Shown here: one piece after another, positions 3,241 to 22,497 of the stretch
How the letters are laid out: each line of letters opens with the position of its first letter
Position numbering within the stretch: the stretch's first letter is position 1
Assembly: GCA_963808715.1 (NCBI GenBank)
Contig: CAWEHG010000034.1
Span: 35,909-99,908 of the forward strand
Source of the DNA: Ignavibacteriota bacterium
Lineage (GTDB): Bacteria; Bacteroidota; Ignavibacteria; UBA10030; UBA6906
DNA length: 64,000 nucleotides
Direction of reading: 5' to 3'
Translations under genes and position numbers: made by a program
Notes under the pieces: generated by a model
Told to the model about the DNA's origin: nothing
Databases searched by the model: none
What the model saw: only the letters and a program-made list of their open reading frames with translations

Positions 3241-4475
3241 CAGTTCCCCAGCGCCTCCTCCACCGCGACGAGCGAAGGGGGGATGGACCGTTCGCTCCCG
3301 GCGGCCTGGCGGGCCGCGCGGATGTCTTTCAGGCCGCTGCCGGTGATCACCACCAGCGCCGATTCCGATCTGCCGATGAGACCCGTCGCCAGCGCCCTGC
3401 GCAGACCGGCAATGCCGGTGACCGCCGCCGGCTCGCCGAAGACCCCGCCAAGCCTGGCCGTGAGCCGCATCGCGTCGAGGATCTCCTCGTCTTCCACCGC
3501 CACCATGGCCCCGTGTGAATCCTTGATCTGCGCGATGGCGCGCCGCCAGTTGCGCGGCATTCCCACGGCGATGCTGTCCGCCACCGTCGCGGGTTCGCAC
3601 GGGACCAGCGGCGTGCCCGAGGTAAAGGCGTCGACGACGGGCCGGGCACCCTCCGCCTGCACCCCCAGGAGACGCGGCATCCTCGGGATACGGCCGAGAC
3701 GCACCATCTCCCCCAATCCTTTGCCGATCCCTCCCAGAGTGCAGCCGTCCCCTACCGATACGACCACCCAGTCGGGGAGCCGGCCGGCACACTGCTCGGC
3801 GATCTCCAGCCCGGCGGTCTTTTTCCCTTCGACCAGGAAGGGGTTGGTTCCGCTGTTGCGGCTGTACCAGCCGAACCTGGAACATGCCTGTCGACAGAGT
3901 TCGAACGCTTCCGCATAGGAGCCGCGCACCCGGAAGACCGTGGCTCCGAAGATGAGCAGTTGCGCCACCTTCGGCTCGGGTGCCGCCTGGGGGACAAAGA
4001 TGTAGGCGGAAAGTCCGGCGGCGGCAGCCATGCCGGCAAGTGACGATGCGGCGTTCCCCGTCGACGCGCAGGCGATCTTCGTGTAGCCGAATTCCAGAGC
4101 CTTCATCACGCCGACCGAGCTGGCCCGGTCCTTGAACGAGGCGGTGGGATTACGGCCGTCGTCCTTCAGCAGGAGTTTCGCCGCACCGATCTCCGCCGCC
4201 AGACGCGGGAGATCATAGACCGGCGTCCATCCGACGACCGGGTGGGGCGGAACTGCATCGGGGGAAACCGGGAGCATCTCGCGGTACCTCCAGTGGTCGG
4301 CTGAGCGCGATGCCAGGATGTTGCCGGTCATTGCCGCAGAGATCCTCTCGTAGTCGTATTCCACGTCGAGGATCCCCTCGGCGCCGCACCGCGGGCAGGT
4401 CTGGAGGTCGCCGTGAGGGTAGACCGCATCGCACAGGAGACAGCGGAGGCCGGTCACGAACGGAGGGGCGGTCAT
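3240..4475 (-). CDS. Threonine synthase-like fold-type II PLP-dependent enzyme with an N-terminal Cys4 zinc ribbon
   Basis: CLLCDAV...CPRCG zinc ribbon, then NPTASFKDRASSV (PLP-lysine motif of the ThrC/TrpB family) and a Gly-rich loop GSGLKD. Translationally coupled on both sides. Confidence 0.7.
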   Translation of the reverse strand: MTAPPFVTGLRCLLCDAVYPHGDLQTCPRCGAEGILDVEYDYERISAAMTGNILASRSADHWRYREMLPVSPDAVPPHPVVGWTPVYDLPRLAAEIGAAKLLLKDDGRNPTASFKDRASSVGVMKALEFGYTKIACASTGNAASSLAGMAAAAGLSAYIFVPQAAPEPKVAQLLIFGATVFRVRGSYAEAFELCRQACSRFGWYSRNSGTNPFLVEGKKTAGLEIAEQCAGRLPDWVVVSVGDGCTLGGIGKGLGEMVRLGRIPRMPRLLGVQAEGARPVVDAFTSGTPLVPCEPATVADSIAVGMPRNWRRAIAQIKDSHGAMVAVEDEEILDAMRLTARLGGVFGEPAAVTGIAGLRRALATGLIGRSESALVVITGSGLKDIRAARQAAGSERSIPPSLVAVEEALGN

Positions 4476-10901: not shown

Positions 10902-12144
10902 ATGGCCACCCTCCGCCCCTTCAAAGGATTCCGTCCCGTCCCGTCCCTTGCCGCACAGGTCGCGGCCAAACCGTACGACGTGCTGAACTCCGACGAGGCC
11001 CGCGCCGAAGTCTCGGGCAAGCCGCTCTCCTTTCTCCATGTGGGGAAACCGGAGATCGACCTCCCGCGCGACGTGGATCTGTACGATCCGCGCGTCTACC
11101 AGAAGGGAGCCGACAATCTCCGGAAGCTGATCGCCGACGGGGTGCTCCGCGAGGATCCCCGGCCCTGCCTGTATGTCTACGCGCAGACGATGGGAGGACA
11201 CACGCAGTATGGCATCGTCGGGTGCGCCTCGGTGTGCGGAGTATCTGAACGACACCATCAAGAAGCACGAGCTGACCCGCAAGGACAAGGAGGACGACCG
11301 GACCCGGCACGTGGAGGTCACCAACGCCCATTCCGGCCCGATCTTCCTGACCTACCGCGCCCGGCCGGAGCTGGACAGGATCGTCGCGAGCGTCACCGCC
11401 TCTTCACCCGTGAACGATTTCACCGCGGAGGACGGGATCGGCCACCGGCTCTGGGTGATCAGCGACCCCGCCACCATCAGTGAGGTCTCATCGGAGTTCG
11501 CGAAGATCGATCTGCTCTACGTGGCCGATGGGCATCACCGCTCGGCCGCGGCGGCCAGGGTCGGCAAGGCGCGGGCCGACAAGAATCCCGGGCACCGTGG
11601 GGACGAAGAATACAACTTCTTCCTCGCGGTCCTCTTCCCGCACAACCAGCTGCGGATCATGGACTACAACCGCGTGGTGAAGGACCTGAACGGCCGGACC
11701 CCCGAGCAGTTCCTCGAAGCGGTTCGGAAGCAGTTCGACGTGCGGGAACATACGGGGCAGGCTCGTCCCGGGAAGAAGGGGGAGGTCGGACTCTATCTTC
11801 GGGGGCGGTGGTTCATGATGAATGCGTTTCCGGAGCTGCTTGCCGCGGCCGATCCGGTGGAGCGGCTGGACGTCTCGATCCTTCAGCGGCACCTGTTGAC
11901 GCCGGTGCTCGGGATCGACGATCCGCGGACCAGCAAGAGGATCGATTTCGTGGGGGGGATCAGGGGATTGCAGGAACTGGAGAAGCGGGTGGATTCCGGC
12001 GAGATGGCGGCGGCGTTCGCGATGTATCCGACCTCCATCGAAGAACTGCTGGCGATCGCCGACGCGGGGAAGATCATGCCTCCCAAGTCGACCTGGTTCG
12101 AACCGAAGCTGCGGGACGGGATGGTGGTGCACTTCCTGGATTGA
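10902..12144 (+). CDS. DUF1015 family protein, with an apparent frameshift near 11235
   Basis: GIVGCASV then (after the shift) YLNDTIKKHELTRKDKEDDRTRHV...GPIFLTY...LYVADGHHR are conserved DUF1015 blocks. Two overlapping ORFs (10902..11483 and 11173..12144) together cover one protein. Confidence 0.65.
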
Positions 12145-12147
12145 GCC

Positions 12148-12798
12148 TCAGAGCTCCTTGATCAGCTTCACCACCTTCCAGACGAAGTTCACGTCCTTGC
12201 GCCTGACCGTGACCGGTTCGTAATCCGGATTCAGCGGGATCAGGTGCACGTACGTCCCCTCGAATTTCACCTTCTTCAGGGTGTCCTCCCCTTCCACGCG
12301 TACCACGCAGATGTCGCCGTTGCGCGCCTCCGCCTGGGGACTGACGATCACCACGTCGCCGTCCTCGATGCGCGGCGACATGCTGTTCCCCTTCACACGC
12401 AGCGCGAAGGCGCCGGGATCCCGGACGTCGTCCACCGTGACGTAGTCGTCCACGTGGTCGGGGTGGAACATCGTCGCCACCTTGCCGGCGGGGACCGCCG
12501 AGATCAGCGGGAGCTCCACCAACCGGTTCTTCTTCCGCACCGTCATCGGAAGGGAGTAGACGTTTTCCGGTCGGGACGGAAGCGGGTACATCTCTCCTTC
12601 TCCTGTGAGCAGCCAGGTCGGCTGGACGCCGGTCGCGCGCGCGATCTTGGTGATCGAGACACCGTCCGGCACCTGCTCCCCCTTTTCCCAGCGCTGCAAC
12701 GTCCGCGTCACCACACCGGCCTTGTCGGCCAGCGTGGACTGGTCCAGCTCCTTGTTGTCCCGCGCCGCGCGTATGCGGTCACCGATGGTGGTCTTCAT
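12148..12798 (-). CDS. LexA-like / CI-like transcriptional repressor (HTH_XRE N-terminus + S24 peptidase C-terminus)
   Basis: An N-terminal helix-turn-helix (LADKAGVVTRTLQRWEKGEQ), then a C-terminal S24 autoprotease with GNSMSP (Ser) and ...LKKV (Lys). Confidence 0.75.
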   Translation of the reverse strand: MKTTIGDRIRAARDNKELDQSTLADKAGVVTRTLQRWEKGEQVPDGVSITKIARATGVQPTWLLTGEGEMYPLPSRPENVYSLPMTVRKKNRLVELPLISAVPAGKVATMFHPDHVDDYVTVDDVRDPGAFALRVKGNSMSPRIEDGDVVIVSPQAEARNGDICVVRVEGEDTLKKVKFEGTYVHLIPLNPDYEPVTVRRKDVNFVWKVVKLIKEL

Positions 12799-12874
12799 GT
12801 CTGCGTACCCGCGAGTGAACGATCCGCCGGCGGTCCGCCCGCCGGGCCGGTCGACAATTTTGGCGCCCGGGGAC

Positions 12875-12928
12875 TTGACAGAGCGACAAAAATGTCATAT
12901 CTTAACGTCGTGAATATAACGATTCACG
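12875..12928 (+). promoter_or_regulatory. Sigma70-like promoter (TTGACA-17-TATCTT) plus a perfect palindrome CGTGAAT-N6-ATTCACG (12909-12928); candidate operator of the adjacent S24 repressor
   Basis: The -35/-10 hexamers are read directly. The inverted repeat lies immediately downstream of the -10, between the divergent repressor and DUF72 genes. The GAGGAGG RBS is at 12951. Confidence 0.4.
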
Positions 12929-12962
12929 GTCTGGATGTCAAGTCTTTCTTGAGGAGGTCCTG

Positions 12963-13874
12963 ATGGAACGACGGAGAGTGGAGGTGCTGGTGGGGATCGG
13001 CGGTTGGGAGCACGAGGTGCTGGACCGATGCCTGTACGGCGCGCATGGGTGGGACGCCGCGAAGAAGCTGCGCGCATACGCGCGCTCGTTCCGCACGGTG
13101 GAGGTGAGGCCCACGTTCTGGGACGATGCGTTGTCGGGCGCCGACGCGCGACAGTGGGTCGAGGCGGTCAGCGGTGAGAAGGGCTTCCTCTTCCAGGTCA
13201 AGCTCCATTCGTCCTTCACGCATCAGAAGCAGATCCGGCCGGCTCTGGCGCGCAGCACCAGGGAGATCCTGCAGGTCCTTGCCGGGGCCAACCGGCTCGG
13301 AGGGCTGTTGATGCAGTTCCCGTACGCCTTCACGAACGTCGGGGCACACCGCTCGCATCTCCAGCGGCTCGCGGAGGAATTCCGCGAGTTCCCCTCTTTC
13401 GTCGAACTGCGCCACGATTCATGGAACCAGCCGGGTCTGAGCGGCTCCCTCGCCCGGACCGGATTGAGGATCGTCCAGTCGGACATGCCGCGCCTGCGCC
13501 AGTTCATGCCGTTCACCACCGGCATCGTCGGCGAGACCGCTTACCTTCGACTGCACGGGCGCAACGAACGGGGCTGGCTTCAGAATGGGATGGACGCGCG
13601 TTACGACTATCTCTACAACGGGCGTGAGCTGAGGGAGATCTCGAGGAGGATCGAAGCGATGATCCCGCGATGCTCCCGGGTCATCATCATCTGCAACAAC
13701 ACGACGAATGGCAAGGCTGTTGCCAATGCCTTCCAGCTCACGTCCGCGGCCCTGGACCGCAAGGTCCAGATCCCTCTGCCGTCGCTGAAAGAATTCCCCC
13801 AACTCGCCGAGGTTGCACTCGGTCAGGAGGGTCACCCCCTCTTCGTCGAGGGGGATTACCGGCAAGCAATGTAA
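12963..13874 (+). CDS. DUF72 (YecE-like) family protein
   Basis: Full-length similarity to the DUF72/UPF0759 pattern (EVLVGIGGWEH...FRTVEVRPTFW...). Confidence 0.75.
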   Translation: MERRRVEVLVGIGGWEHEVLDRCLYGAHGWDAAKKLRAYARSFRTVEVRPTFWDDALSGADARQWVEAVSGEKGFLFQVKLHSSFTHQKQIRPALARSTREILQVLAGANRLGGLLMQFPYAFTNVGAHRSHLQRLAEEFREFPSFVELRHDSWNQPGLSGSLARTGLRIVQSDMPRLRQFMPFTTGIVGETAYLRLHGRNERGWLQNGMDARYDYLYNGRELREISRRIEAMIPRCSRVIIICNNTTNGKAVANAFQLTSAALDRKVQIPLPSLKEFPQLAEVALGQEGHPLFVEGDYRQAM

Positions 13875-13879
13875 GACCG

Positions 13880-15224
13880 CTATCTCGCGGGGCCGCCGGA
13901 CCTTGGGCCGCCACCCGACCTCGGGCCACCGGACCTCGGGCCACCGGACCTTGGGCCACCGGACCTCGGGCCACCGGACCTCGGGCCACCGGACCTGGCC
14001 CGCCGGACCTCGGGCCACCGGACCTCGGCCCACCGGACCTCGGGCCACCGGGCCTCGGCCCACCGAACCTCGGGCCACCGTCCTCGGCCCCGGCCTGGAG
14101 CCACCATGGGGTCCGCTGCGGCCCGGACCACCGCTGCCACCCGGCCTGAATCCACCAGGTCCCCGCGAATCCTGTCCGCCCGGCCCGCCGCGACGCGGGC
14201 CACCGAATTTCGATCCGCCCCCTCCTGGACCCCTGTAGCCCGGGCCACTTCGGCCAGCGCCACCGAATTTCGAGCCTCCAAACTTCGAGCCCCCGAACTT
14301 CGGGCCTCCGTATTTCGGACCTCCGGCCCTGGGCCGGTCTTGACCCGGGCCTGCCGGTCTTGGCCTGTCGAATCTTCCCCCTCCGGACGCAGGCCGGCCG
14401 TGCTCCTGACCTTCCGGCCTCGGCTTGTCGAACCGGGGCCCTCCGGGCCGAGACCTCCGGCTGGGACCTCCGGGCCTTGGACCTCCGGGCCTTGGCCTTA
14501 CCGTAGCCAGGTCCGCCGCGGCCGGATCCACCGAACTTCCTCTCCCCGGGTCCCGATCCTCCAGGACGCCCCCCTTCACCACCCTGGCCGCCAAACTTCG
14601 GAGCGCCCGGCTTGAATCCACCGCTTCTGTATCGGACCGGCCGTTGACCCCCTGCATCTGAACCTCCGGTTTCCCTCGGTCTGGCCCCTCGGGTCTTGAC
14701 CCTTCGTGCTCTTCCTTCTTCTCAGGACGCGGAAGGATCTCCGCGACCGAATTGACGAAGGAACCAAGCAGCGCATAATCCTCCGCACGGCGCACAAAAC
14801 CGGCCTTCACCGCCAGCATGAAGAGAGCCCTTGCGGCGTCGATCGTCCCCTCCTCCTTCCGAAGGACCCGCTCCTGGTACTTCTTCGACCAGAGCGTGTG
14901 TTCCCGTGAAGCCTCATAGACCGTACCCGATGCCGAGCGGAACGCCTGGAGAAAGACCTTGAAATCCGCCTCATCGGTCTTCCCTCGCACGATCATCCCG
15001 AGCCGGTCGGGGAGGAAGCAGTAGGCATACACGTCGAACTGGTGCGTCTGCGCCGCATCCCGCAGGGCGCCAAGCACCCCGAAAACGATCTCCCCTTCCG
15101 CGAACGCCGCACGCTCGCCGTACGTCGGGAGCGTGACCAGATACCTGTGCGTCCCGCGGTAGTCGAACCGTTCGCGGTCCGGGTCCGGGGTCTTCTCCAG
15201 ATGCATCTCGTCGATAGTGGTCAC
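13880..15224 (-). CDS. IS200/RAYT-like Y1 'transposase' fold domain with a degenerate HuH motif, fused to a roughly 280-aa Gly/Arg/Pro-rich low-complexity tail (FGG/RGG-like, SGGPR repeats). The 3' end is uncertain.
   Basis: The N-terminus HRYLVTLPTYGERAAF...VYAYCFLPDRLGMIV...TLWSKKYQERVLRKEE...LAVKAGFV matches the COG1943 blocks, but HxH is replaced by RLG. The tail reads GGPKFGGSKFGGSKFGG...RGPGGFRPGGSGGPG. The SGGPR frame ends with a stop at 13880; the listed ORF runs on to 13419 only because of a frame slip inside the repeats. Confidence 0.5.
13891..14090. repeat. Tandem array of a 15-bp unit (ccggacctcgggcca, about 13 copies). Degenerate related repeats continue to about 14700.
   Basis: Directly visible. 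All three frames stay open on both strands. On the minus strand the frames read RGPVA / VRWPE / SGGPR. Confidence 0.85.
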
Positions 15225-20421: not shown

Positions 20422-22497
20422 ATGAAACTCACACTCGCGTTCATCGGCCTTTTAATGGTGTTGGCGATTCCCCCGGTTCGCTCCCAGGGGATCACCGCCC
20501 TCTCCAAACCAGCAGGAGACGACAACACGAAGTACACCAGCGTCGGCAACATCGCCATCACGATCACGAACTTCGGCACTCTCGGGCACGGCTTCCGTCT
20601 GTGGCCACAGCAACCCTCGTTTCAGTATCCGCGCGGATCGGGGATCGAGCACATGTTCATTGGCGGCATCTGGATCGGGGCGTATCATCCTTCGAACGGC
20701 ATCCGCGTCAGTACCGCCGCGGTGGACGTCTCCTCGCTCCGTCCCGGAGCCGCAGAGGGATTTGAGTTCACCACCGGGATCGACTCCCGGGTCGTCGAGC
20801 GCTCGACATTGCCGGACAATCGATTCTATCTGCCCGGCGCTGTCAGCCATCAGGACTTTGTCGCAGATTTCACGGACACGAACACCGTCAATCCAAATCA
20901 GAACAACGAGCCGATCCCCAACCATGCGCCGCTTGGCGTGAACGTGCACATGGAGACGTACGCGTTCAACTATGCCTTCGCCGACAACTTTGTCATTCTC
21001 AATTACTGGATCAAGAACAACAACTTCTTCCCGCTGGACAGCGTATACGTGGCATTGTGGGCGGACATTGTGGTCCGGAACACGATCGTTTCTCCCCCTA
21101 CCGGCGGCACGTCGTTTTTCAACAAGGGGGGCCTCGGCTATATCGACTCACTAAACGTCGCCTACGGATTCGACTTCAACGGGGACAACGGGCTCGCCGA
21201 TACGTACGGGGCCATGAAGTTCCTCGGATCGACGCCCTTCCGGCATACCACGACCTACCAGACCTGGCAGTTCCGGAATTCGACCGACCCGGTGTTCTTC
21301 TCCCCGGCGAACGACGCTGACAAGTTCACCAAGATGTCCAGCGGGCTTCTCCCCTCACAGATCGCGGCGGTCACCTTCCCGATCAACAACATGACGATGA
21401 TCACCGCGGGCCCATACTCGCGCATTCCCGCCCGGGATTCGATCAATGTCGTGTTCGCCCTGATGGCCGCGAAGATGGTGAACTGGTCGATGCAGGATTC
21501 GAAGAACAACCCCGATATCCCGGAGAACCGCACCAATCTCTACCTGGCGTGCAAGTGGGCACAGCGCACGTACGACGGAGAGGACAAGAACGGGAACGGC
21601 ATTCAGGATTCGGGAGAGGTGTGGACGGGACCAATCATTCATGGCGAACAGATGCCGAAACGATTCTTCCTGCCGGCTCCTCCGAATGCTCCTCATGTGA
21701 AGGTCGTGCCGGGCGATCAGACGATCGACATCTATTGGGACCGTAATGCCGAGGCCTCCATCGATCCGATCTCCAATGTGCCGGATTTTGAGGGATATCG
21801 CATTTACGGCACGAATGTCGGATTCGACCTCACCGTTTCCCAGGATATCCTTGCAGGGATGAATACGCTCGGAGACTTCGACCGGAAAGACGACGATATA
21901 GGATACAACACCGGCTTTGGTGCGATCAGGCTGGCCCAACCCGTACAGTTCCCGCCAGACACCACGCACTATGCATACAAGTTCACCATGCCGGGCGTAT
22001 TGAACGGCTGGCAGTACGGGGTCGCCGTGACCGCGTACGACTCAGGCGACGCATCGATCGGGCTGGAAAGCCTTGAAAGCAGCCGGCTCCAGACTCTTGC
22101 ACGGGTGTTCCCGGGCACGCCCCCCTCCACCTCGACCAAGAACCCTGTTGGCGTGTATCCGAATCCGTACTACGCGAACGCGTACTGGGATGGAGCCCGG
22201 GAACGGCTGCGCAAACTCTATTTCCGGAATCTCCCCGCCCACGCCGAAGTGCGCATCTATACGATCACCGGCGATCTCGTTGACGCATTCACCCACGATG
22301 CGGAGACCTATACGGGGAGCGAGATCCAGTGGTTTCAAACCTTCTCCGACGGGACCCAGCGATTCGCCGGAGGCGAGCATGCCTGGGACCTCATCTCAGC
22401 CAAAGACCAGGCCATCGCAACAGGTCTCTACCTCTTCACAGTGAAGGATCTCTCCTCGGGAGAGACTCAGCGGGGGAAATTCCTTGTGGTCAAATAG
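20422..22497 (+). CDS. Secreted protein with a signal peptide and a T9SS C-terminal sorting domain (function unknown)
   Basis: N-terminus MKLTLAFIGLLMVLAIPPVRSQG. The C-terminal roughly 90 aa (VGVYPNPYYAN...VRIYTITGDLV...GLYLFTVKD...RGKFLVVK) have the type-A T9SS CTD pattern. Confidence 0.6.
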   Translation: MKLTLAFIGLLMVLAIPPVRSQGITALSKPAGDDNTKYTSVGNIAITITNFGTLGHGFRLWPQQPSFQYPRGSGIEHMFIGGIWIGAYHPSNGIRVSTAAVDVSSLRPGAAEGFEFTTGIDSRVVERSTLPDNRFYLPGAVSHQDFVADFTDTNTVNPNQNNEPIPNHAPLGVNVHMETYAFNYAFADNFVILNYWIKNNNFFPLDSVYVALWADIVVRNTIVSPPTGGTSFFNKGGLGYIDSLNVAYGFDFNGDNGLADTYGAMKFLGSTPFRHTTTYQTWQFRNSTDPVFFSPANDADKFTKMSSGLLPSQIAAVTFPINNMTMITAGPYSRIPARDSINVVFALMAAKMVNWSMQDSKNNPDIPENRTNLYLACKWAQRTYDGEDKNGNGIQDSGEVWTGPIIHGEQMPKRFFLPAPPNAPHVKVVPGDQTIDIYWDRNAEASIDPISNVPDFEGYRIYGTNVGFDLTVSQDILAGMNTLGDFDRKDDDIGYNTGFGAIRLAQPVQFPPDTTHYAYKFTMPGVLNGWQYGVAVTAYDSGDASIGLESLESSRLQTLARVFPGTPPSTSTKNPVGVYPNPYYANAYWDGARERLRKLYFRNLPAHAEVRIYTITGDLVDAFTHDAETYTGSEIQWFQTFSDGTQRFAGGEHAWDLISAKDQAIATGLYLFTVKDLSSGETQRGKFLVVK

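Follow-up and report, generated by a model that had tools for sequence, protein, structure and literature searches.

We analyzed a stretch of 64,000 nucleotides from an Ignavibacteriota bacterium (GenBank assembly GCA_963808715.1, contig CAWEHG010000034.1, positions 35,909 to 99,908; the whole stretch is referred to as the window), in which a repressor gene and a gene of the DUF72 family are divergently arranged across an intergenic region of 164 bp. We consider it probable that the repressor is a LexA analogue of Ignavibacteria, of the non-canonical LexA type, with a new operator motif and a small regulon of repair and mutagenesis genes. The original prediction, made from the letters of the window, had read the pair as a compact stand-alone stress module controlled through a different palindrome.

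A CI-type repressor with residues for self-cleavage

The two genes and the residues of the repressor that matter for its function are as follows; lengths and positions in proteins are in amino acids (aa).

12148-12798, minus strand: repressor gene (216 aa), with an XRE/CI-type helix-turn-helix (HTH; aa 5-63), a linker and a C-terminal S24 self-cleaving peptidase domain (aa 97-207)
12484-12489, minus strand: codons of Ala104-Gly105, the predicted autocleavage bond, aligned by phmmer to Ala84-Gly85 of E. coli LexA
12382-12384, minus strand: codon of Ser139, the predicted catalytic nucleophile (GNSMSP), aligned to LexA Ser119
12274-12276, minus strand: codon of Lys175, the predicted general base (LKKV), aligned to LexA Lys156
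12963-13874, plus strand: DUF72 gene (303 aa, TIM barrel, Pfam DUF72), the putative local regulated output and a candidate DNA-repair enzyme

As judged from its domains, the protein is a chromosomal CI-type repressor, an XRE HTH joined to an S24 peptidase, in the S24 superfamily of LexA, CI and UmuD. The N-terminus matched Pfam HTH_3 (aa 9-63, E = 1.5e-10) as well as HTH_19 and Phage_CI_repr, and its nearest solved structures are P22 C2 (E = 2e-6) and the 434 repressors. The C-terminal domain matched Peptidase_S24 (PF00717, aa 97-207) with 93.5 bits against a cut-off of 23.3 (E = 9e-27), and a phmmer comparison with solved structures aligned aa 95-206 to the C-terminal domain of E. coli LexA at 35% identity (E = 2.5e-13); the residue correspondences listed above come from this alignment. 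The canonical LexA model TIGR00498 reached 74.4 bits, below its cut-off of 110.95, and covered aa 92-215 only. Since a five-helix XRE HTH occupies the N-terminus instead of the LexA winged helix, the protein is not a canonical LexA. The XRE-type HTH and the intact Ser/Lys dyad had been correctly recognized in the original prediction, which overlooked the Ala104-Gly105 site.

In a comparison of 88 distinct relatives, Gly, Ser and Lys were present in 88/88 and Ala in 86/88, and the recognition-helix stretch RTLQRWEKGE was near-invariant. The strict conservation of Ala-Gly, Ser and Lys suggests that cleavage is under selection. At E <= 1e-10, 823 relatives were found; the 120 of them that were listed have 216-250 aa, mostly exactly 216, and are 76-100% identical to the repressor of the window. 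Across one set of genomes, identity is 76-84% for the repressor but only 52-60% for the DUF72 beside it, which is far less conserved.

A conserved operator-promoter cassette

The intergenic region contains two divergent promoters and two dyads, one of which lies in a promoter spacer.

12875-12903, plus strand: predicted DUF72 promoter, TTGACA (12875-12880), 17 nt, TATCTT (12898-12903); 10/12 matches in the promoter scan
12913-12941, minus strand: predicted repressor promoter, TTGACA (12941-12936), 17 nt, TATATT (12918-12913); 11/12 matches in the promoter scan
12884-12897, no strand: putative primary operator O1, CGACAAAAATGTCA, with the perfect core GACA-N4-TGTC at 12885-12896 (GACAAAAATGTC)
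12853-12864, no strand: putative auxiliary operator O2, GACAATTTTGGC, with one mismatch to GACA-N4-TGTC in the motif scan

The promoter scan recovered the TTGACA-17-TATCTT promoter of the original prediction. The minus-strand repressor promoter, which scores better, and the GACAAAAATGTC dyad in the DUF72 promoter spacer had both escaped notice.

For comparison, we collected 80 metagenomic loci with repressor relatives (62-99% identity) and four contigs obtained by exact protein look-up. One rigid layout was common to 69 loci, whose repressors are 64-84% identical to that of the window. Read in the direction of the repressor, it consists of TTGACA, 17 nt, TAnnnT; 12-14 nt; (A)TACGACA-W4-TGTCGT(C); TGTCAA; 14-15 nt; GACA-N4-TGTC; about 12 nt; and ATG. 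On the opposite strand, the first dyad fills the 17-nt spacer of the DUF72 promoter, TTGACA-[nnnCGACAwwwwTGTCG]-TATCTT, and the second is upstream of the -35 element. The repressor promoter, TTGAC[A/T]-17-TAnnnT, was conserved in 69/69 regex-matched orthologs, and TACGACA-W4-TGTCGT stood at the same place in all 69 loci. The distance between the centres of O1 and O2 is 32 bp in 58 loci and in the window and 31 bp in the other 11, that is, three helical turns. In the window, the full cassette pattern has a single match, compared with 0.02 expected by chance. From these comparisons, the conserved operator appears to be (C)GACA-N4-TGTC(G), which lies within the promoter spacer rather than at the start of transcription.

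The two promoters interdigitate, with predicted starts that cross: about 12910 for rightward and about 12906 for leftward transcription. Because of this crossing, each promoter would compete with the other for RNA polymerase, and a single repressor array may cover both; O1 would lie within the repressor transcript, at about +10 to +21.

When GACA-W4-TGTC was searched in the window with one mismatch, O1, O2 and one intragenic site were found. The last (GACAACTTTGTC, 20983-20994) departs from the A/T-spacer rule by a single mismatch, is located within an open reading frame (ORF) of 691 aa (20422-22497) and has no promoter context; it is probably there by chance. The search for CGACA-N4-TGTCG with two mismatches was uninformative (70 matches versus 52 expected).

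Distribution of the cassette in related genomes

The pattern ATACGACA-W4-TGTCGT was searched in GTDB with one genome per species (185,579 species genomes) and gave at least 120 matches; the counts below refer to the 120 matches listed. Of these, 51 lie directly upstream of four types of target. The first is the divergent pair of repressor and DUF72 (at least 14 loci). The second, at least about 30 loci, comprises the operons (small Cys-rich ORF)-dinB-iRadA-PPB2-PolB2 and iRadA-PPB2-PolB2. The third is a second DUF72 clade (DUF72b, about 32% identical) divergent to an SF1 helicase, and in the fourth the repressor and a PolB2 operon are divergent. In the target loci, Pfam matches bear out the assignments of DNA_pol_B, IMS (Y-family polymerase), DUF72 and Cdd1. 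Membership of the regulon is established by comparative genomics.

Two features outside the search pattern served as an internal control. TTGACA was found exactly 17 nt before the -10 element in 50/51 regulon promoters versus 2/69 other hits, and an auxiliary dyad 30-34 bp upstream in 40/51 versus 3/69. By their names, about 30 of the 51 records are of Ignavibacteria type (Ignavibacteria, Ignavibacteriota, Ignavibacteriales, Ignavibacteriaceae and Ignavibacterium); the remainder are mostly Bacteroidota/Bacteroidetes, with one Chlorobi, two Chitinophagales and one "bacterium".

The repressor/DUF72 site and the polymerase-operon site were on separate contigs in four assemblies: CAWDEM01 (loci L143 and L225), PMBF01 (L208 and L214), JAOUDE01 (L158 and L175) and DASWHW01 (L128 and L124). 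The cassette thus acts, as far as its position tells, at unlinked loci within one genome assembly, and the compact stand-alone module of the original prediction must give way to a dispersed regulon that includes dinB and PolB2 operons.

The sites also accompany the repressor in other gene arrangements. In distant relatives (57-67% identity, L080-L083), dyads are kept before the repressor gene without an adjacent DUF72, and at L154, L206 and L218 the repressor with its sites is divergent to PolB2 operons. In L083, a perfect ATACGACAAAAATGTCGTAT fills the spacer of a TTGATA-17-TATCTT promoter, which is followed by genes for proteins of 247 aa, 90 aa and 772 aa, the last a family-B polymerase (PF00136), in the order iRadA-PPB2-PolB2. 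At four loci (L008, about 726-1030; L040, 3696-3998; L050; and L202, 317-610), a small helix-hairpin-helix gene (Pfam Cdd1, PF11731, E = 9e-28) stands between the operators and the repressor; the two genes would then share one transcript and its control.

It could be argued that another factor binds the conserved GACA-N4-TGTC sites and that the S24 protein is merely one of its co-regulated targets. The same palindrome does occur in systems unrelated to the repressor, namely phage replication-initiator arrays and a hicAB promoter. However, in every context, from 57 to 100% identity, the repressor gene has the sites in front of it, and no other DNA-binding gene is consistently linked to them. 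Dimeric HTH repressors of the 434/P22 type bind a 14-bp dyad with an A/T-rich centre that is not contacted, and the dyad described here, of 14 bp with an A/T-rich centre, suits such a protein. We regard control by another factor as very improbable.

Several further features of the target loci were noted. The Cys-rich ORF of about 84 aa, possibly a zinc ribbon and without a Pfam hit, is the first after the operator in many dinB/PolB2 operons (L152, 6094-6348; L157, L162, L183, L221, L233, L224 and L164), and a gene for a Yip1-domain membrane protein is usually divergent to these operons. The second DUF72 clade carries the cassette at L215 (5905), L220 (4786) and L140 (7299); in L215 and L220 a gene for an SF1 helicase (AAA_11/AAA_12) of about 960-1000 aa diverges from it. 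Operator sites, two of them dual, were also found in four Ignavibacteria-type loci (L138, 346; L189, 141; L196, 5407; L234, 330), where the downstream genes are cut by the end of the locus or have no Pfam match; these sites are possible further members of the regulon.

The palindrome at the predicted transcription start

The original prediction had placed the operator at a perfect palindrome, with the repressor occluding the DUF72 start when bound there. This palindrome and two other elements of the intergenic region are as follows.

12909-12928, no strand: palindrome CGTGAAT-N6-ATTCACG (loop ataacg), overlapping the -10 element of the repressor promoter; present, lineage-specific and probably fortuitous
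12951-12957, plus strand: Shine-Dalgarno sequence GAGGAGG, 5 nt before the DUF72 ATG, read from the sequence
12827-12845, no strand: GC-rich perfect inverted repeat CCGGCGG-N5-CCGCCGG in an insertion of about 50 nt in the repressor leader; in the lineage of the window only

The palindrome is indeed there, and it spans both the predicted DUF72 +1 and the -10 of the repressor promoter, as an occluding operator might. However, it was confined to contigs with a repressor identity of 98% or more (L001, L002 and L005); it was absent from about 70 other orthologous intergenic regions and already gone in L006, where the repressor is 89% identical. The recognition helix is near-invariant across the loci that have lost it. 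Shuffling the intergenic region gave a perfect 7+7 inverted repeat (loop 0-12) in 10% of cases, and a search of the window for GTGAAT-N6-ATTCAC with up to two mismatches returned the original site only (1.17 expected by chance). The palindrome was dropped as operator after the ortholog comparison, since it is neither conserved nor above chance level; its absence from orthologous regions, on which the original prediction had itself staked the assignment, refutes that assignment. We consider a stand-alone module working through this palindrome most improbable.

L006 has the same degenerate O2 half-site as the window. As for the leader insertion, O2 and the ATG are only about 12 nt apart in most orthologs.

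Not a prophage repressor

The HTH is nearest to those of P22 C2 and the 434 repressor, and the protein matches the phage CI family phrog_4 over its full length (E = 7e-46). One may therefore ask whether it is an immunity repressor left by a prophage or another mobile element, with DUF72 as cargo, and a viral contig that bears the same promoter-operator cassette (L103, see below) points in the same direction. However, no integrase, cro, structural or lysis genes were found near the pair, and the neighbours are housekeeping genes that keep their order across many genomes (Aminotran_5, DUF1015, a Y1-like gene and SDR). Among loci with sufficient flanking sequence and a repressor identity of 70% or more, DUF72 adjoins the repressor in 55/55, which bears out the divergent pairing described in the original prediction; DUF1015 is kept in 47/58 loci and Aminotran_5 in 27/40. 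The GC content of the pair is like that of its flanks, without a compositional break. IMG/VR gave three weak matches to the repressor, two of them in the HTH only, and no close relative; cultured phages had at most about 35% identity. Furthermore, the lengths and identities of the relatives listed (120 of 823) fit vertical inheritance. We thus rejected the prophage hypothesis, in agreement with the original prediction, and a prophage remnant is extremely unlikely; an ancient phage origin of the repressor, as distinct from its present role, is plausible.

Viral contigs were scanned with the 18-mer, and the 33 matches are estimated to be at about chance level; none is beside a repressor homolog. 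The contig L103 (IMGVR_UViG_3300045988_028691) has a complete cassette at 3288-3330, with auxiliary dyad, TTGACA, spacer operator and TATAAT at a spacing of 31 bp, before a 152-aa ORF and a 150-aa XRE protein; this phage may be wired into the regulon of the host repressor. Arrays of 3-5 copies of ATACGACA-N4-TGTCGTAT were found inside phage replication-initiator-like genes, where they resemble origin iterons, and a two-site cassette precedes a hicA-hicB pair (for both kinds: L113, 3984-4090; L099, 205-281; L117, 50-260 and L094, 7483-7690; L090, 6044-6092 and L106). The same dyad thus appears to be used by unrelated DNA-binding systems.

The gene convergent to DUF72 (13880-15224, minus strand) encodes a domain like that of Y1/REP tyrosine transposases (NF047646, 59.6 bits versus a cut-off of 80 bits) followed by a Gly/Arg/Pro-rich tail; no match for the protein was found in Pfam. 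This Y1-like/RGG gene had been suggested as a further output of the repressor, and we rejected it since no copy of the operator precedes it. It adjoins DUF72 in 27/47 loci. Its tail is encoded by a 15-bp tandem repeat of 13.4 copies (13910-14105), across which the "GGPRS" frame hops 0->2->1; a stop is present only in frame 1, at 13880. Because of these frame hops, the 455-bp overlap of the 601-aa ORF with DUF72 probably results from indels (assembly error or slippage). In L003, a 189-aa homolog without the long tail occupies the same place. The DUF1015 gene (10902-12144, plus strand) is likewise split into overlapping frames of 193 aa and 323 aa, its L003 ortholog being a single ORF of 413 aa; this split, a frameshift or sequencing indel, again points to indel errors in the assembly.

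The DUF72 protein

The product of the gene paired with the repressor matched Pfam DUF72 (PF01904) with 140.6 bits (E = 1e-40) and has solved homologs in 1VPQ (E = 5e-22) and 1VPY. Its AlphaFold model (pLDDT 83.7) was aligned by Foldseek to the DUF72 structures 1ZTV and 1VPQ with TM scores of 0.71-0.82. More distant matches were TIM barrels like xylose isomerase. Among them, SacUVDE, the UVDE of Sulfolobus, held rank 15 (TM 0.44, E = 7e-4) and the AP endonuclease of African swine fever virus only rank 36, and sugar epimerases of the same superfamily ranked above both; the ranks come from fold comparison alone. We considered DUF72 as a UVDE-like enzyme and did not adopt this assignment, the Foldseek likeness being at the level of the superfamily only. 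A role in repair is for this reason drawn from the context of the gene: as a member of a repair and mutagenesis regulon, DUF72 would most likely be an enzyme that processes DNA damage. For Tm1631, a DNA-repair role was predicted computationally (PMC4939058), and the regulatory context described here independently supports the idea of such a role for DUF72, whose activity is presumed. The family is that of E. coli YecE.

Comparison with known systems

CI-like S24 proteins regulate the SOS response of Bacteroidetes (Sanchez-Osuna et al. 2021, PMC8565304) and of Francisella (PMC13148647, 2026). The former, known as non-canonical LexA, shares with the present protein an HTH_3 (PF01381)/CI-type N-terminus followed by an S24 domain with Ala-Gly, Ser and Lys, a chromosomal location and autoregulation, here putative, through a short dyad whose spacer is odd or short. 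It also represses translesion polymerases (here by comparative genomics only), is often divergent to a regulated repair gene and belongs to the same superphylum (FCB group). In contrast, the C-terminal domain of the present protein has BLASTP scores of 25-33 bits to four of the Bacteroidetes proteins, whereas it has 57-64 bits to LexA of E. coli and M. tuberculosis, lambda CI and UmuD. The Bacteroidetes proteins have a terminal helix, about 30 residues past S24, whereas the present protein ends 3 residues after the aligned core. None of their motifs (GGA-N5-TCC, CTAA-N5-TTAG and TTAC-N5-GTAA) is in the 164-bp intergenic region, which has CGACA-N4-TGTCG instead. The regulon here comprises DUF72, dinB and PolB2, whereas COG1801/DUF72 and COG0417 do not appear in the supplementary tables of that paper, which states that the family is exclusive to Bacteroidetes and does not mention Ignavibacteria (PMC8565304). 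Membership in the Bacteroidetes clade was rejected on the C-terminal scores, the missing helix and the motif.

FddR of Francisella (PMC13148647) and HdiR of Lactococcus are likewise phage-type S24 repressors co-opted to control themselves and divergent genes as a self-contained damage unit. They belong to other lineages; the FddR motif, GTG-N11-CAC, is absent from the intergenic region, and the cassette described here has spread to unlinked polymerase operons. With canonical LexA, the protein shares the best match of its C-terminal domain, cleavage and catalytic residues in register and, by prediction, autoregulation and repression of translesion polymerases; it differs in the XRE HTH, the sub-threshold TIGR00498 score and an operator that matches no known LexA box tested (E. 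coli, Gram-positive and FddR boxes were absent from the 164-bp intergenic region). It resembles lambda CI, P22 C2 and 434 cI in domain architecture, HTH, 14-bp dyad and two operators placed for cooperative binding, but it stands outside a prophage and would control host genes of repair and mutagenesis.

The neighbourhoods of bacterial polB2 were reported to be enriched in lexA and DUF72 (Makarova 2014, PMC4104785; PMC11791011, 2025). In agreement with this, iRadA-PPB2-PolB2 has a neighbouring S24 repressor and DUF72 in L083, L154, L156, L202 and L222. The passages of these two papers on which we draw describe enrichment of neighbourhoods, with no operator, promoter architecture or regulon. In the literature on LexA of Ignavibacteria, on DUF72 with LexA and on PolB2 with LexA, we found no description of the present system.

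Proposed mechanism

We propose that dimers of the repressor bind a palindrome of 12-14 bp, (C)GACA-N4(A/T-rich)-TGTC(G). O1 would fill the -35/-10 spacer of the DUF72 promoter and at the same time lie just downstream of the oppositely facing repressor start, and the weaker O2, three helical turns away, would probably permit cooperative binding. When both are occupied, DUF72 would be off and the repressor autoregulated. Upon DNA damage, RecA filaments on single-stranded DNA may stimulate self-cleavage at Ala104-Gly105 by Ser139 and Lys175, which would part the HTH from the dimerization domain and derepress the regulon. In related genomes, the same cassette would drive dinB, the iRadA-PPB2-PolB2 mutasome operon, the second DUF72 clade and the Cdd1 gene. 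The damage-inducible module suggested by the original prediction is, in this wider form, consistent with the sequence data. Dependence of the cleavage on RecA seems to us somewhat better than an even guess.

Some points weigh against this model. DNA binding, cleavage, RecA dependence and damage induction are all predictions from sequence. In the window, O2 is mismatched in one half-site and O1 has T for C at one flank, and the core motif is low in information (8 fixed bases and an A/T spacer) and is also found at unrelated functional sites, namely phage iterons and the hicA promoter. The GTDB pattern includes the -10 bases "TAT", so that its hits are biased towards promoters with the operator in the spacer, and do not speak for regulon members (recA, uvrA etc.) with single or differently placed sites. 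Neither dinB nor polB2 was found in the 64 kb of the window, nor was a second cassette, so that the wider regulon belongs to the relatives and not, on this evidence, to this organism; the 64-kb window is what was covered of the source genome.

An alternative is a local repressor, autoregulated on GACA-N4-TGTC, that does not respond to RecA or DNA damage, being constitutive, controlled by a ligand or partner, or cleaved upon another trigger. RecA dependence is one of the predictions just named, and among the matches listed recA and uvrA are not targets of the operator-in-spacer scan. Furthermore, some S24 repressors need co-factors, such as UmuDAb with DdrR (PMC11332147), or are inactivated in another way, such as ClpX-dependent CI (PMC10584840). 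However, the strict conservation of Ala-Gly, Ser and Lys argues for cleavage, and the targets, a Y-family polymerase and the PolB2 mutasome, are genes that SOS systems keep silent. Archaeal PolB2 operons were, moreover, reported to be damage-induced (PMC11791011). On balance, a repressor of this kind is unlikely, and we prefer the LexA analogue.

Implications

One possible explanation of these findings, which we offer tentatively and hold at slightly less than even chance, is that Ignavibacteria replaced LexA by a CI-type S24 repressor that they recruited independently. The outcome would be the third non-canonical LexA lineage after the Bacteroidetes proteins and FddR, and DUF72, as the ancestral and always-linked target, would be a hitherto unrecognised damage-inducible repair enzyme alongside PolB2 and DinB. 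The idea of a non-canonical LexA is extended to a further lineage of the FCB group, where the protein concerned is no ortholog of the published family, and repeated co-option of CI-type repressors into SOS regulators is supported. With the operator CGACA-N4-TGTCG and the fixed cassette, damage regulons may be predictable in uncultured Ignavibacteria. The cassette is also the first regulatory evidence that we found linking bacterial PolB2 mutasome operons to an S24 repressor with a defined site. Finally, the widespread and uncharacterised DUF72 family, held beside this repressor in all 55 suitable loci, gains a testable role in the DNA-damage response.

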